Positions 19,979-30,127 of a DNA stretch of 64,000 bases are shown here, piece by piece. Both the position numbers and the translations under genes were made by a program. The DNA is from Pocillopora damicornis (Eukaryota): contig NW_020844494.1 of the NCBI RefSeq assembly GCF_003704095.1, forward strand, positions 682,001 to 746,000, written 5' to 3'. The notes beneath the pieces are model-generated. The model made no database searches. It was not told where the DNA came from and saw only the letters and a program-made list of their open reading frames with translations. Each line of letters begins with the position of its first letter. Positions within the stretch are counted from its first letter, which is position 1.

Positions 19979-22900
19979 TTATAAGGACTCTAGCAGTTTC
20001 TGAGCTTGTTCGCTTGATTCTTTGTCCTAAATTTTCGGCAATGAGAAAAAAAATTTTCAGAAAGTCAAACGTGATCGTTTGTTTGGTTCAATGAAAGCAT
20101 CCATCATCGTAGAAATCGTAGAAAAGGAATTTTAGAATAACACTTAAAATATTCACGAGTCTAAAGTTTTTTTTCTGGAGTTCTGGCTTCAATGAATTCC
20201 AAAGTACGACAACGACAGTAGTACGGTTTTTTGTTAAATGATAAGAAAAGCAGAAAGTAACAAAGAGTCGTTGTTCTATTCTACTTACGTCATCATTGGA
20301 GACTGGAAGCGAGAGAGCTTTCTTCAACCATTCTTTCGCCTTTGGTACATCTCCATTTTGTTTGTAACACTATGAAGGAAAAACTTGTAAAATGCTTTGG
20401 AATATTCGAATGTATTCTATGTAGAAATGGATTCTTTGCGTAGAAAGTTGCTCGAACCATTTGAGATCCCGAGTACAGGTCTTAAGAAATGTGTTACAAT
20501 GTTTCTTTTTTCTCTTCACGAAGATCAATTAACGTGAACTTAAGATGACAGATAAGAACACAGCTTTTATTAGCTTCTAATTTATTACCTTTCCGATCCA
20601 AAACGAATTTGTCAGCCAAAATCCCGGCTGGAGATCTTCAGCCTGAAAAAAGGCAATCAGTTAGATAATAAAAGAGAGTCATGTAAAATTAAACAAAAAA
20701 ATCTCTAGTTGTTCTTTGGTAATAATAAAAGTAATACATAGGAAAATGCCAAATATTCAGTATGCTTGACCCCAATTCAAAATGTCTAGTTTCCGGCCAA
20801 GGCCAGGTCATCTGCGTTGACTGTGTACGAGTAAGAAACTTAAAAAACTTTACTTTCTCAGTGCCACTCTCCACTCTGCTAATAAGGAGGAGTAACAAGA
20901 CTCCTGGTCACTTCATGCACAGAAAACTGGAATAAACTCCTCTATTAATGGTTTCTAATCTTCTAAAATTAAAACCTATTTTAATTTAAGTTAATATTCT
21001 TCAAGCAAAGTTTAGTGTGAGTTCCTGTTTCAAAGGCTGACCTTAAGAAAGTTTTGAAGAGCCTCGTCAATAGATGATGACGGAGGTTCAGCTACAAATG
21101 CTGAGGCAGCTTTCCTCTGCCACCAAGACAACATAGAAATCTGAAATAGAATTCAGTTTTATTAAAGCTCAGACAGATCTTGAATGAGAAAAAAATCACA
21201 AAAAAATTCAGTTCAAGTTGCAAAGTTACCTCAAAACACCATCTTCCAAATAGATGATAGTTAGCAGGATCATCCCTGTTGAGTTTAATAGCTTCTTGAA
21301 TATGTTCCTACAAAATAACACAGTTATCTCATATCACTGGAGTCAATGTCCTTCAAAAATTGCTACACAAGACGAGAAAAAAAGGTTTGTAAACAATTTG
21401 ACCATTAAATTAAAGGTTAGATAATGTGAGTGCATTCAGATCTGTGCAAAGTTCAAATACTTTTAAACTAATTTAATTATTTTTTTCCTCTACCTTGTAT
21501 TCATAGCCCAGCAAAATCTGATCTTGTAAACTTTTATATTCTGTTGTGCTTCCAAGAATTATTGCATACCTATAAAAAAAAAATTAGAAATACAATATTG
21601 GGTGTGGTAAGTATGTGCAACTTACAAGACACTGTGTTCTTCACATAGACATGAAAATCCAGATATTGAGGAGCAATTATGTTTTAATCAGTTACTTACC
21701 ATTTGTGAGCATTTGGATTTTTTTTGTCCATTTGAATTGCTTTCTTTGCCTCTGCAATGCCTTCAAATTTTCAGTTTGTCAGATTAAGCAAATGTATATG
21801 ATTACAACAAAGCTTCATGGAAGCACCAAAACAATTACTTTTAGGTAAATTTTACAGAGTATTACCATCTAATAAGAAACTGAATCATAAGTGGTTGAAA
21901 TGCAATTCAGAGGCAACTGATTAAAAGATACTGGTCAGGTACTGAACACCAATCAGAAGGTAGTGCCACATTTTCTTAAGAACACTTTTCAGGAAGCTGC
22001 CCTCCCATGATTTGCTGACTTTAATAATCAAATGGCAAGCATATAGGTAGTGGCTATACCTTCATATAACATGTTTTTTTTCCCATCAGCATCTCCACTT
22101 TTTCCTTTCATTGTTGCAATATCGTAGCAAGATCTTGCATATCTCCAGCTAACTTCACAGTGTTCATGTTTCTGTACAAGTGAATCATGGTTACAAAATT
22201 ATATCAGTCTACTAAAAATATTTATTATCTAATGAAGTATATGATTTTGTAATAAACATTCAATTTACACCCCTGACCTGTAAACACTCATGTAGAAGTC
22301 CATGAATTTTTTGCTTGGCTGCAGTCTCATTATTGGAGTGTAGCTGGTCTACTTCATCAATGATAGCTTTAAGATGGTCAAAGTCCAAAGCACTAGATGT
22401 AATGCCACAAAATGAAATATCAGTTAAATCAAATGTGTTGGGGAGAGAGAGGTGGTGGCAGGAAAATTAGCCCACTGAACTCTGGACTCTAGACTCTGGG
22501 TCAAAAAATCTTGGTTTAGATCTTAATGTGTGTTTTTAGGCAAAACACTTCATTCTCACAGCACCTCTCTCCACCCAGGAGTATAAATGGGTACCACCAC
22601 ACTGTCAGGAAAGTCTGACAATGCATAGGGAGGTAATCTGCGATGGATCAGCCTCCCATTGATTGCAAACTGGAGTATGGATCAAAAGGTCCAGATTTTA
22701 GCCCTGAGAAGGTCCAGCAATTGTGTTATGTTCTTGGGAAAGACACTCTATTCCCACATTTCATATTAACCCAGTGAATAGTTTGGGAAACTTGTTGAAA
22801 TCCTGATGTGCAAGGGGGNNNNNNNNNNGAAGAACCAGAATCCCATCCAGGGGTGAGTGGCAAGTCAGTCTTGATTGCTAGGACAAGCTCTGGCAGTATG

Positions 22901-23605
22901 GGCCACTCGCCCCATGAATAGACCACAGAGTTTGTTTTACAGGTAAAGGCTAGCAGTTTCAAGCAACTAAACTAGCATATATGTGTAATCCATTTTTCAT
23001 GGGTAAACAGCCTGGCTTATGTTTGAACTTGAACTTTAATATAGCCTGGCTTATGTTACAAAGCCCAACAATTCATATTTTGAGACACAACGTTGTCAAA
23101 ATATGATCTGCATTCCTATTTGTCGTTTTGTTTCACAGCTATTGTAGGGCTATAAAAATTGTCACCTATCACCTCCTCTCTAAAGTTCGCTCGAATTGTA
23201 AGTCGCTTTACCAGTCAGAGAGATAAAAAACATATTTACACTGTACCTGGAGGAAAGTTCTTCCCCGGACATTTCAAAAAATTCGTCTTCCGTCTCCTCA
23301 TCACTTTGTACAGTCACTCGAGATGGTTCATTCTTCAGTGGTACATTTCGTTTATTTTTGCCTTCAGTGAGGGTTACTTCAAGTCTAACCACTGTACAAC
23401 GAAGTTCTCTTATTTCGTCCCTCAACTCAGTGAGCTGAACGACAATATTTTGTTCTTCCTTTCTCACAGCAAGCCATTTCCTTGAAGCAGCCATTCCAGC
23501 ACCTATCCCTATCCCAATTCCCAAGCCAATGGAGATTCCCACAAGAATATTACGTCCACAAGATGAAAAGAACCCGAAATTATCAAATGACTGCAAAGAC
23601 GCCAT
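19979..23605 (-). CDS. RMDN3: Regulator of microtubule dynamics protein, RMDN2/RMDN3 (PTPIP51) type, 10 exons
   Basis: Exons 23605-23247, 22392-22278, 22171-22060, 21760-21700, 21569-21494, 21307-21230, 21140-21042, 20642-20589, 20369-20289, 20026-19979, all GT-AG and in phase. N-terminal TM helix plus coiled coil, then TPR-like RMD1 motifs ([73 protein letters not shown]). Confidence 0.9.
20765..20945 (+). mobile_element. Degenerate tRNA-derived SINE in RMDN intron
   Basis: Shares body motifs (ACTTTACTTTCTCAGTGCCACTCTCCAC; GGAGTAACAAGACTCCTGGTCACTTCATGC) with the common anthozoan SINE also seen at 22470-22930. Recognised from memory. Confidence 0.5.
22470..22930 (+). mobile_element. Two adjacent degenerate SINE copies in RMDN intron 1
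   Basis: GGCAAAACACTTCATTCTCACAGCACCTCTCTCCACCCAGGAGTATAAATGGGTACC, then a second GTTCTTGGGAAAGACACTCTATTCCCACA...CATCCAGGGGTGAGT. Typical anthozoan SINE core. Confidence 0.6.
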
Positions 23606-29100: not shown

Positions 29101-30127
29101 AACTCTGCAGTCTGCAGTCTACATTTTGTACCTAGTCTACATTTTGTATCCAGTCTGCAGTCTGCATTTTGTACTAAAAGATATCTGTGGCACCAATACA
29201 GTTTATTTTTGGTAACAGTTATTCCCACAACACACACAATCTACCACAAAATAACTGTGTGTGAGTTAATTCAACATTTTTGTTCTTTTCCACTTTAATA
29301 CTCTTCTTTCCTTTTGTAAAAATGGAGACATCACTTACAATGTTTCAATCACTCCACCCACCCCCAAAAATAACTCTTGCATGCATAGCATGCCTGCATT
29401 TTATTTGCTTGTTCCACTTAACAACCAGTAGTTGTTAGTTGCAACAACTAACAACCATTGTTTGTTTTTGACACACGGCTTATTATTCAAAGGACTCTTA
29501 TCCTACCTTGTTTAAATTTTTTTCTCTTTGCATCCAAAGCCTGTGTTCGTAACCTTGCTTGTTCTTTAGCCTTCAGTACAGCATCATAAGCAGCTTTTGC
29601 CTTTGGATCACTGAGTACCTCCAATGCCTTTGAGAGCTCATGAAATAATTCAACTAAAAAGTGAAATATAGATCTACAGGTATAAGTACGAATAAAACCT
29701 ACACTTATACTACTTCCTAAAGAAATACTCACTTCACTTTGATCAAAAATGATCACTGCATGACTAGTACCTCAACATTTGCACGAAAGTCTATATTTCT
29801 ATATTATGCATTAACATAAATTGCATCCTTACGGGCTTGTGGGTTATCAGGATTCTTATCAGGATGACATTTTAGTGCCTTTTTCCTATAAGCTTTAGCA
29901 ATCTGCAAAGCAAACCAAAAATAAAGTTTCTGTGAGCGGCACCAATTTGCAATGCAGTTGAGTTGTACAACAAGATAAGTTAGCGCAGTACAAACTTTCC
30001 AAAATCCCCCTTGATAAGTTATATTCAATTCGTTCAGTAAAATTTTAATCATATAAGTTTTTACCTCTTTTAAGCTGCTTTCTTTGCTAACTCCAAGAAT
30101 TTCATAATAAGTCAGTTTGTCCGCCAT
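26152..30127 (-). CDS. DNAJC17: DnaJ homolog subfamily C member 17 (J domain + RRM), 9 exons
   Basis: Exons 30127-30065, 29902-29833, 29653-29507, 27624-27548, 27456-27325, 27085-27008, 26879-26799, 26682-26527, 26286-26152. J domain with [17 protein letters not shown]...NGGY RRM entry; C-terminal [20 protein letters not shown]. Confidence 0.95.
29082..29175. repeat. Short degenerate tandem repeat (CAGTCTGCA/CATTTTGTA units)
   Basis: Repeated CAGTCTGCA and AGTCTACATTTTGTA units in DNAJC17 intron 3. Confidence 0.6.

Follow-up and report, generated by a model that had tools for sequence, protein, structure and literature searches.

The locus analysed here raises the question of whether three neighbouring coral genes, encoding RMDN, GCHFR and DNAJC17 homologs, constitute the same block that is found in human and, if so, what has kept them together. 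The locus lies within a 64,000-nucleotide stretch of the Pocillopora damicornis genome (contig NW_020844494.1, positions 682,001 to 746,000), hereafter the window. A preliminary description made from the sequence alone had proposed that the genes are adjacent, as RMDN(-), GCHFR(+) and DNAJC17(-), that this arrangement has been retained since the cnidarian-bilaterian split, and that its retention implied a cis constraint such as a shared promoter or overlapping 3' ends.

Gene models of the block

The analysis of the window bore out the proposed adjacency. The three genes are intact and spliced, occupying exactly 19979-30127 from the RMDN stop codon to the DNAJC17 start codon (Table 1), and no additional gene was found among them within the block. 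All 20 introns of the models, ranging from 89 to 1,882 bp, present GT-AG ends, and the predicted products are identical to named Pocillopora damicornis proteins at 360/360 (RMDN), 97/97 (GCHFR) and 312/312 (DNAJC17) residues. Three RNA runs, of which one was classed as RNA by guess, have 15 listed joints, and these match at least 12 of the 20 introns (at least 8/9 in RMDN, 2/3 in GCHFR and 2/8 in DNAJC17), against no intron joints in a DNA-like run. An open frame at 20855-20925, considered as a candidate RMDN exon, was ruled out, as the RNA joint 20641-21041 passes over it.

Pfam domains (RMD1-3 for RMDN, GFRP for GCHFR, DnaJ and RRM for DNAJC17) and best PDB matches (the RMDN3 TPR domain, E 2e-44; GFRP; the DNAJC17 RRM, E 4e-26) agree with these assignments. 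The GFRP domain spans the whole of the GCHFR product, and the DNAJC17 product combines a J domain with a DNAJC17-type RRM, identifying both as orthologues. The last GCHFR exon contains one coding base and the stop codon; it is nearly all UTR and faces DNAJC17.

Table 1. Coordinates of the features of the block in the window.
Feature	Position	Strand	Description and basis
RMDN2/3-type gene	19979..23605	-	10 coding exons, 360 aa; residue identity, Pfam, PDB, trees
RMDN exons 1-5	23605-23247, 22392-22278, 22171-22060, 21760-21700, 21569-21494	-	
RMDN exons 6-10	21307-21230, 21140-21042, 20642-20589, 20369-20289, 20026-19979	-	
Predicted membrane anchor of RMDN	23492..23548	-	residues 20-38; Kyte-Doolittle 19-mer mean 2.05
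Acidic tract and EFFEM, FFAT-like motif	23264..23305	-	predicted VAP binding; sequence
RMDN-GCHFR intergenic	23606..23751	.	146 bp between start codons; putative shared or overlapping promoter and 5' UTRs
GCHFR (GFRP)	23752..25355	+	4 exons, 97 aa; residue identity, Pfam, PDB
GCHFR exons	23752-23787, 23923-24017, 24453-24611, 25352-stop	+	
GCHFR-DNAJC17 intergenic	25356..26151	.	796 bp between stop codons; probably touching or overlapping 3' UTRs
DNAJC17	26152..30127	-	9 coding exons, 312 aa, J domain and RRM; residue identity, Pfam, PDB

Identity of the coral RMDN gene

The synteny would be false if it were a coincidence or if RMDN paralogues had been mixed up, the coral gene being RMDN1. Pairwise TPR scores fail to separate the paralogues (448/365 for RMDN2, 417/410 for RMDN3, 401/388 for RMDN1 and 505 for a choanoflagellate protein), coral copies are labelled 'RMDN1-like' in several databases, and the orthogroup of Robert et al. 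pools RMDN1-3 (PMC8851819). Against a paralogue mix-up stands the phylogeny, which the preliminary description had set as its refuting test. In an unrooted IQ-TREE analysis of 46 hand-picked rows, 19 of them named by a source (LG+G4, no mixture model), a branch with 100/99 support has the 19 RMDN1-side rows on one side, without exception, and the RMDN2/3 rows of coral, amphioxus and vertebrates on the other. With group membership assigned after inspection of the trees, AU tests rejected the grouping of the anthozoan sequences with RMDN1 (p=1e-7), and also with RMDN3 (p=2e-4) or RMDN2 (p=6e-5) individually. RMDN2 and RMDN3 form a clade with hagfish and lamprey sequences at 100/99, and the coral gene is not a one-to-one orthologue of RMDN3.

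The protein architecture also fits RMDN2/3, encompassing an N-terminal hydrophobic helix, a predicted coiled coil, an acidic FFAT-like tract and the TPR domain. The Kyte-Doolittle 19-mer mean of the helix is 1.7-2.2 in seven other RMDN2/3-type rows and 1.0-1.3 in the five RMDN1-side rows listed, and a similar acidic/FFAT-like tract is present in 6/6 cnidarian-side and 0/5 RMDN1-side rows listed. A role for FFAT motifs in RMDN2/3 is described in the available part of PMC7705450. As judged from its sequence, the coral protein hence has the predicted membrane helix and FFAT-type motif of the RMDN2/RMDN3 (PTPIP51) subfamily, and its RMD1-3 TPR domain groups away from RMDN1, with RMDN2/3. Some helix-bearing rows also fall on the RMDN1 side of a 151-row RMDN tree, from which five rows with short matches had been left out beforehand.

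The coral gene is a co-orthologue of vertebrate RMDN2 and RMDN3, and neither RMDN1 nor RMDN3 alone. The name RMDN3 given to it in the preliminary description is thus correct as to the side of the family and too specific as to the paralogue. The block places the ancestral RMDN2/3 gene at the RMDN3 locus.

The coincidence variant fares no better. With 10,000 triplets under test and orthologues shuffled among 300 to 10,000 genes, both assumed values, chance is expected to yield 0.22 to 0.0002 triplets in the same order, or 0.03 to 0.00003 when orientation is included, and the block recurs in several phyla. We consider a false synteny, largely refuted by these results, extremely improbable.

Distribution and age of the block

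The order RMDN(-), GCHFR(+), DNAJC17(-) is also present in a second coral, at a genomic locus (L005), and the three frames are found in one assembled transcript of a spliced contig (L001), with stop codons ~1,000 nt apart; L001 and L005 were counted as one species because they are 96-100% identical. In a third coral (L002), GCHFR(+) faces DNAJC17(-) at ~1,070 nt. Five of the eight metagenome loci, 1.3-2.4 kb long and without an RMDN or DNAJC17 match, were counted neither way. The RMDN and DNAJC17 accessions lie at most four numbers apart in 7/9 named coral species, and on equal-length contigs in the other two.

The same three genes compose block 519 ('Planulozoa novel') of the Syntenic Density Database, in the available rows of supplementary file 4 of Robert et al. 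2022 (PMC8851819), as orthogroups OG0001274 (RMDN), OG0007808 (GCHFR) and OG0004563 (DNAJC17). To qualify as such, a block needs no fewer than three orthologous genes, separated by five others at the most, and occurrence in two or more cnidarians as well as two or more bilaterians; going by its label, placozoans, sponges and ctenophores lack it. The window presents three adjacent genes with none between, and the block-519 rows, the corals analysed here and the tetrapods provide the required cnidarians and bilaterians. In those rows, block 519 is listed for at least 7/49 genomes, including sea anemone, starfish, amphioxus and tick, with the three orthogroups together in 5/7 species. The Nematostella RMDN of the block (EDO32079) belongs to a cluster that groups with the window protein at 100/99. 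Block 519 shares with the window the three orthogroups, the inferred age and a G6PC neighbour in anthozoans; it differs in that Pocillopora was unsampled and in that the published table holds neither strands nor spacing, which were measured here in corals only. Flanking members vary across lineages (G6PC, GALM, RDH, RAD51), while the three-gene core is constant. The tick gene numbers in the listed rows place RMDN beyond DNAJC17, so that the RMDN-GCHFR link is probably broken there. Among the at least 33 block-519 rows seen, there is no placozoan, sponge or ctenophore and no vertebrate, though human rows exist for other Planulozoa blocks. The block nevertheless appears to be a vertebrate survivor.

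The human strands are taken here to be RMDN3(-), GCHFR(+) and DNAJC17(-). The human order given in the preliminary description agrees with the available part of PMC3229566, which gives RAD51-[CYP1C1]-FAM82A2(RMDN3)-GCHFR-DNAJC17 for frog, anole, chicken, mallard, mouse and human. Gene lists in the portions seen of PMC10581699 and, for goat, PMC10763158 present the same order, the latter with C15orf62 between GCHFR and DNAJC17; C15orf62 is nested in DNAJC17. The coral and vertebrate blocks share gene order and differ in flanking genes and in the teleosts, where RMDN3 is separated from GCHFR-DNAJC17 (zebrafish and stickleback, same excerpt of PMC3229566). The six gene names searched for are absent from the parts seen of three supplements of PMC10719294.

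The three genes thus formed an ancestral block that survives in corals, sea anemones, starfish, amphioxus and tetrapods, and the proposed retention since the cnidarian-bilaterian split is supported. It was already in print: the linkage is catalogued, and the small addition made here is to connect its invertebrate and tetrapod occurrences and to measure the anatomy of the block. Our literature search, which reached sources in part, returned no main text on the invertebrate synteny of these genes. As a case the block is ordinary, being one among 162 blocks traced back to the common ancestor of cnidarians and bilaterians, 85% of which were lost in vertebrates (PMC8851819), and ~600 deeply conserved neighbour pairs (available part of PMC3514665).

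Junctions and persistence of the block

RMDN and GCHFR are separated, from start codon to start codon, by 146 bp in the window, 128 bp in L005 and 110 bp in L001, all within the 1-kb spacing that defines bidirectional pairs, and a promoter motif of ~16 bp from 23646 is kept in the L001/L005 coral. The CpG observed/expected ratio is 0.6-0.7 at 23001-24500, compared to 0.0-0.25 in most gene-body bins. One RNA contig extends over 23373-23788 and the RMDN 5' end reaches 23673 in another; position 23655 has no cover in one RNA run. These data suggest that a single short CpG-rich promoter region fires both genes in corals. Such a tiny promoter cannot explain tetrapod retention, because the human RMDN3 and GCHFR starts presumably lie ~8 kb apart and GCHFR is absent from human divergent pairs spaced <1 kb. 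The latter comprise 924 pairs in the part seen of Table S5 (PMC2871058).

At the opposite junction, single contigs extend over 25349/25355-26284/26287 in all three RNA runs, covering the whole 796 bp at depths of 52-138, compared to 8-22 in the bin of the preceding intron. Continuous RNA crosses this junction also in L001 and L002. These contigs are unstranded, so that starts, ends and strand are not readable from them and depths cannot rank genes; their continuity is consistent with GCHFR and DNAJC17 3' UTRs that touch or overlap in corals. The AATAAA hexamers at +25749 and -25577 were rejected as evidence of overlap because such crossing arises in 29% of shuffles. The GCHFR junction into a nearly UTR-only last exon recurs in L001, L002 and L005, and the GCHFR-DNAJC17 link is kept in the teleosts, where the RMDN link broke, and in the tick, where it probably did. 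It is quite unlikely, in our judgement, that the two genes form a cis-antisense pair that predates the coral-human split and is the block's most durable link, with the UTR-only exon serving to bring the 3' end of GCHFR within the DNAJC17 transcript and to tie the feedback control of tetrahydrobiopterin to a chaperone that binds RNA.

The reading that we favour, with moderate confidence, is that the block persists by tight packing, with almost no breakable DNA between genes. RMDN and GCHFR would be driven from one short CpG-rich promoter region and the GCHFR and DNAJC17 3' UTRs would touch or overlap, leaving few harmless breakpoints; most breaks at these two junctions would impair a promoter or a poly(A) end, and selection would eliminate them. 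Packing would lower the breakage rate without forbidding breakage, and would not need a shared function of the three proteins. The 110-146 bp spacing in two coral lineages and the transcribed sequence filling the gap between stop codons argue for it, as does the enrichment of conserved pairs in head-to-head orientation and short spacing (portion seen of PMC3514665). Against it, just seven or more of the 49 genomes list the block, a lower bound since tetrapods are missing from the rows seen, and the equally tight DNAJC17-G6PC junction is listed there only in three anthozoans (PMC8851819).

Leftover ancestral order in slowly rearranging genomes, with the tight coral spacing incidental, is a possible but rather unlikely explanation. 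Apart from a tick, all genomes with block 519 in the rows seen are slow-evolving, the teleosts broke it, and blastn of the window 3' UTR against L001 or L002 returned no match; with an assumed independent survival of 1-5% of neighbour pairs, 1-25 triplets per 10,000 would be left. Robert et al. (PMC8851819) regard constraint versus low rearrangement as an open question. This explanation is countered by the recurrence of the core in four invertebrate lineages and in tetrapods with changing flanks, and by the spacing and promoter motif retained between distant corals.

Selected co-regulation, in which a common promoter and antisense overlapping 3' ends would actively couple an ER-mitochondria tether, the protein exerting feedback on tetrahydrobiopterin synthesis and an RNA-binding protein with a J domain, we regard as unlikely. 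We know of no pathway shared by the three genes, which counts against it, as do the non-conserved UTR sequence across corals and the loss of the RMDN link in teleosts. The motif kept in the second coral and the shared GCHFR last-exon junction facing DNAJC17 speak for it, together with a human variant listed as an eQTL for both RMDN3 and GCHFR in NK cells (part seen of PMC13558399), though neighbours commonly share eQTLs. The co-regulated pairs of Irimia et al. 2012, such as HSPD1-HSPE1 (same portion of PMC3514665), are likewise unrelated head-to-head genes with a very short spacer kept across phyla; RMDN-GCHFR differs in lacking an evident functional link and in that its short spacer is known in corals, not in human. 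Genomic regulatory blocks, in which a developmental regulator has its enhancers within the large introns of a bystander gene, also show deep microsynteny of unrelated genes, but the coral block is densely packed, with small introns (the largest of 1,882 bp), and has no developmental regulator or transcription factor among its three genes.

Any packing constraint is soft, as RMDN-GCHFR is broken in teleosts and probably in a tick. The shared promoter and touching 3' ends named in the preliminary description are probably present in corals; 'implying' a cis constraint was too strong, because of the teleost and tick breaks, the lack of GCHFR among the 924 pairs, and the ~600 pairs and 162 blocks already known. 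The locus offers a compact 10-kb test case for packing versus co-regulation, with DNAJC17-G6PC as internal control. The start codons of that pair would be 67 bp apart were it not for a 1.3-kb insertion in the window. Joints at 30768-31166 that had suggested introns of a small gene lack GT-AG ends and are attributed to a repeat with deletion variants.

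Gene content and published record of the block

Three intact genes, RMDN, GCHFR and DNAJC17, were identified in 19979-30127, and all 20 introns of their models (20/20) present GT-AG boundaries. The models match named Pocillopora damicornis proteins (360/360, 97/97 and 312/312 residues, respectively), which identifies the animal as a coral of the genus Pocillopora, map to the Pfam families RMD1-3, GFRP and DnaJ+RRM, and have the RMDN3 TPR domain, GFRP and the DNAJC17 RRM as their closest solved structures. Of these introns, at least 12 were supported by RNA contigs from three runs of three studies (one run being assigned as RNA by guess), as counted among the 15 joints listed of 33, and none of the block's introns was present among the joints listed for a DNA-like run. 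The coral GCHFR extends ~13 residues past the C-terminus of solved vertebrate GFRP, and its last exon (coding part 25352-25355) comprises one coding base, the stop codon and the 3' UTR. This junction is identical in other coral loci from a metagenome scan (2254-2257 in L005, with equivalents in L001 and L002).

The microsynteny is already catalogued as block 519, "Planulozoa novel", with at least 33 rows in at least 7 of 49 genomes in the available portion of supplement 4 of Robert et al. 2022 (PMC8851819). Among the matches listed there, all three orthogroups are present in Acropora, Nematostella, Acanthaster, Branchiostoma and Ixodes, with the GCHFR row absent for Exaiptasia and the DNAJC17 row absent for Lingula. 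In the first four genera, rows follow the order RMDN-GCHFR-DNAJC17, read forward or backward, and gene numbers in the tick Ixodes run GCHFR, DNAJC17, RMDN. The matches listed for block 519 in this portion include no vertebrates, and this class also contains blocks that do have human rows (596 and 953; PMC8851819). The Nematostella RMDN of block 519 (EDO32079) sits in a cluster that groups with the window protein.

The human genes presumably lie on the -, + and - strands, with a gap between the RMDN3 and GCHFR starts that we take to be ~8 kb. In line with such a gap, Table S5 of PMC2871058 contains no GCHFR row among 924 human divergent pairs separated by less than 1 kb. The order FAM82A2 (RMDN3)-GCHFR-DNAJC17 is documented for frog, anole, birds, mouse and human in PMC3229566, which also reports that zebrafish and stickleback keep GCHFR-DNAJC17 with RMDN3 elsewhere. 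Our literature search returned no main text joining the invertebrate and tetrapod observations, although supplements might hold one. The present analysis adds that tetrapods retain a block that the catalogue, among the matches listed in the portion available, lists for invertebrates alone, together with a revised RMDN assignment and the promoter and UTR geometry measured in corals.

Orthology of the coral RMDN and the role of chance

RMDN homologs comprised 156 proteins, 151 of which were used in a FastTree tree, and 46 hand-picked rows (19/46 named by a source) were analyzed with IQ-TREE. In the resulting unrooted tree, a 100/99 branch splits 19 RMDN1-side rows (among them RMDN1 of cattle, snake, sea cucumber, flatworm, centipede and acoel, plus a choanoflagellate) from 27 RMDN2/3-side rows, among them the coral, Nematostella, a jellyfish, amphioxus and vertebrate RMDN2/3. 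A separate 100/99 clade encompasses RMDN2, RMDN3, hagfish and lamprey. AU tests on this unrooted topology, with groups filled post hoc once the trees had been seen, rejected the grouping of anthozoan sequences with RMDN1 (p=1e-7), RMDN3 (p=2e-4) and RMDN2 (p=6e-5). The coral protein also presents putative RMDN2/3-like traits, namely a hydrophobic helix at the N-terminus together with an acidic FFAT-like tract (for the RMDN2/3 comparison, see the available part of PMC7705450). Together, the branches, the AU rejections and these predicted traits indicate that the coral RMDN is, as judged from its sequence, a co-orthologue of RMDN2 and RMDN3, and the trees and AU tests thus correct the RMDN3 identity assigned in the preliminary description. 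Against co-orthology, the paralogues are not told apart by pairwise scores, some coral copies are named RMDN1-like in databases, and the RMDN1 side of the 151-row tree also has some helix-bearing rows.

For an assumed 10,000 triplets and shuffling of orthologues in pools assumed to hold 300 to 10,000 genes, between 0.22 and 0.0002 same-order triplets are expected by chance. Since the block recurs in several phyla, coincidence is negligible, and an origin of the pattern in paralogue confusion or chance can be practically dismissed. The ancestry of the three-gene block is established, and the microsynteny with human that had been proposed for this locus was correctly spotted as real and ancient.

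Junction geometry and persistence of the block

The start codons of RMDN and GCHFR are 146 bp apart in the window, and their 5' region shows a CpG observed/expected ratio of 0.6-0.7, versus 0.0-0.25 in most gene-body bins, a contrast expected of invertebrate genes that are expressed constitutively and whose bodies are methylated. Both 5' ends are spanned by one RNA contig (23373-23788), and in another the 5' end of RMDN reaches 23673; a third RNA run has zero cover at 23655. The stop codons of GCHFR and DNAJC17 lie 796 bp apart, and in 3/3 RNA runs one contig bridges their last-exon acceptors, with an RNA depth of 52-138 in this interval versus 8-22 in the preceding intron bin. Because the contigs are unstranded, this cover indicates the lack of an untranscribed gap, yet it does not demonstrate 3' overlap, and crossing poly(A) hexamers at these 3' ends appear in 29% of shuffles.

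The metagenome scan yielded 8 loci, five of them too short to be informative on the block. The genomic locus L005 presents RMDN(-), GCHFR(+) and DNAJC17(-) with starts 128 bp apart, and L001, a spliced contig with all three frames, has starts 110 bp and stops ~1,000 nt apart. Both were counted as one species (96-100% identical), and the L001 RMDN is 64% identical to the window RMDN over 219 residues. In a third coral (L002), GCHFR faces DNAJC17 with ~1,070 nt between them. Among 9 named coral species, 7 have RMDN and DNAJC17 accession numbers that differ by at most 4, and both genes lie on equal-length contigs in Stylophora and P. verrucosa, providing indirect evidence of adjacency. The 3' UTRs of L001 and L002 returned zero blastn matches against the window, and a promoter motif of ~16 bp is common to the window and L001/L005. 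Active co-regulation of RMDN, GCHFR and DNAJC17 was weighed as an explanation for the block and appears quite improbable.

The tiny head-to-head spacer and the tail-to-tail spacer transcribed throughout, both observed in corals, suggest that the block is probably held passively by packing. One promoter region would serve RMDN and GCHFR, the UTRs of GCHFR and DNAJC17 would touch or overlap, and breakpoints at either junction would mostly be harmful. The available part of Irimia et al. 2012 (PMC3514665) describes 595 ancient conserved pairs enriched in head-to-head orientation and short spacers. The packing constraint is soft, because teleosts and probably the tick have lost the RMDN link, because block 519 is unlisted for most surveyed genomes (among the matches listed in the portion available), and because the DNAJC17-G6PC junction acts as a control. 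Neutral survival is a rather unlikely account of the block.

As regards the control junction, block 519 includes G6PC in Acropora, Exaiptasia and Nematostella and in zero bilaterians, among the matches listed in the available portion of PMC8851819. The DNAJC17-G6PC start spacing would be 67 bp without insertion, and here this spacer carries an element of 1.3 kb that has inverted ends of 54 bp (98%) and is flanked by an 8-bp target duplication. Its depth of ~400-680 in the DNA-like run, versus 7 in the three genes, indicates a multicopy element, which RNA runs also contain in abundance. A non-autonomous DNA transposon of the hAT or P type is its likely class.

Remaining features of the window

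Genes in 38787-64000 were called by Pfam on single frames. Upstream of RMDN, the long frames that match no Pfam family may correspond to OG0027617 and OG0034978, anthozoan orthogroups labelled "Unknown" in the available portion of block 519. Read depth and loose ends revealed multicopy repeat fragments in introns of RMDN and DNAJC17.

Window coordinates of the annotated features
Feature	Position	Strand	Remarks
Long frame	7654-8262	+	no Pfam family
Long frame	13115-14275	-	no Pfam family
Long frame	17870-18370	+	no Pfam family
RMDN	within 19979-30127	-	10 coding exons, 360 aa
Repeat fragments, RMDN intron 1	22819-22828, ~22560-22600		beside 10-N gap
GCHFR	within 19979-30127	+	4 exons, 97 aa
DNAJC17	within 19979-30127	-	9 exons, 312 aa
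Repeat fragments, DNAJC17 intron 3	27900-29400		
Target duplication	30187-30194, 31518-31525		
Inserted element	30195-31517		between DNAJC17 and G6PC start codons, ends right at G6PC ATG
Assembly gap	30249-30348		inside element
Inner partial end copy	31275-31324		inside element
G6PC-like gene	31526-33484	+	PAP2 domain in last exon; head-to-head with DNAJC17
PAN domain	38830-39246		Pfam, single frame
C-type lectin	40459-40968		Pfam, single frame
Rhodopsin-family GPCR	43922-44890		Pfam, single frame
Low-complexity repeat	45339-46146		long, purine/pyrimidine; adjoins 171-N gap
Calcium-activated K channel beta subunit	47002-48390		Pfam, single frame
Patatin-like gene	50553-54184		Pfam, single frame
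Neighbour of patatin-like gene	57107-59033		similar-looking, seemingly broken
S-Me-THD-like gene	62123-63481		Pfam, single frame
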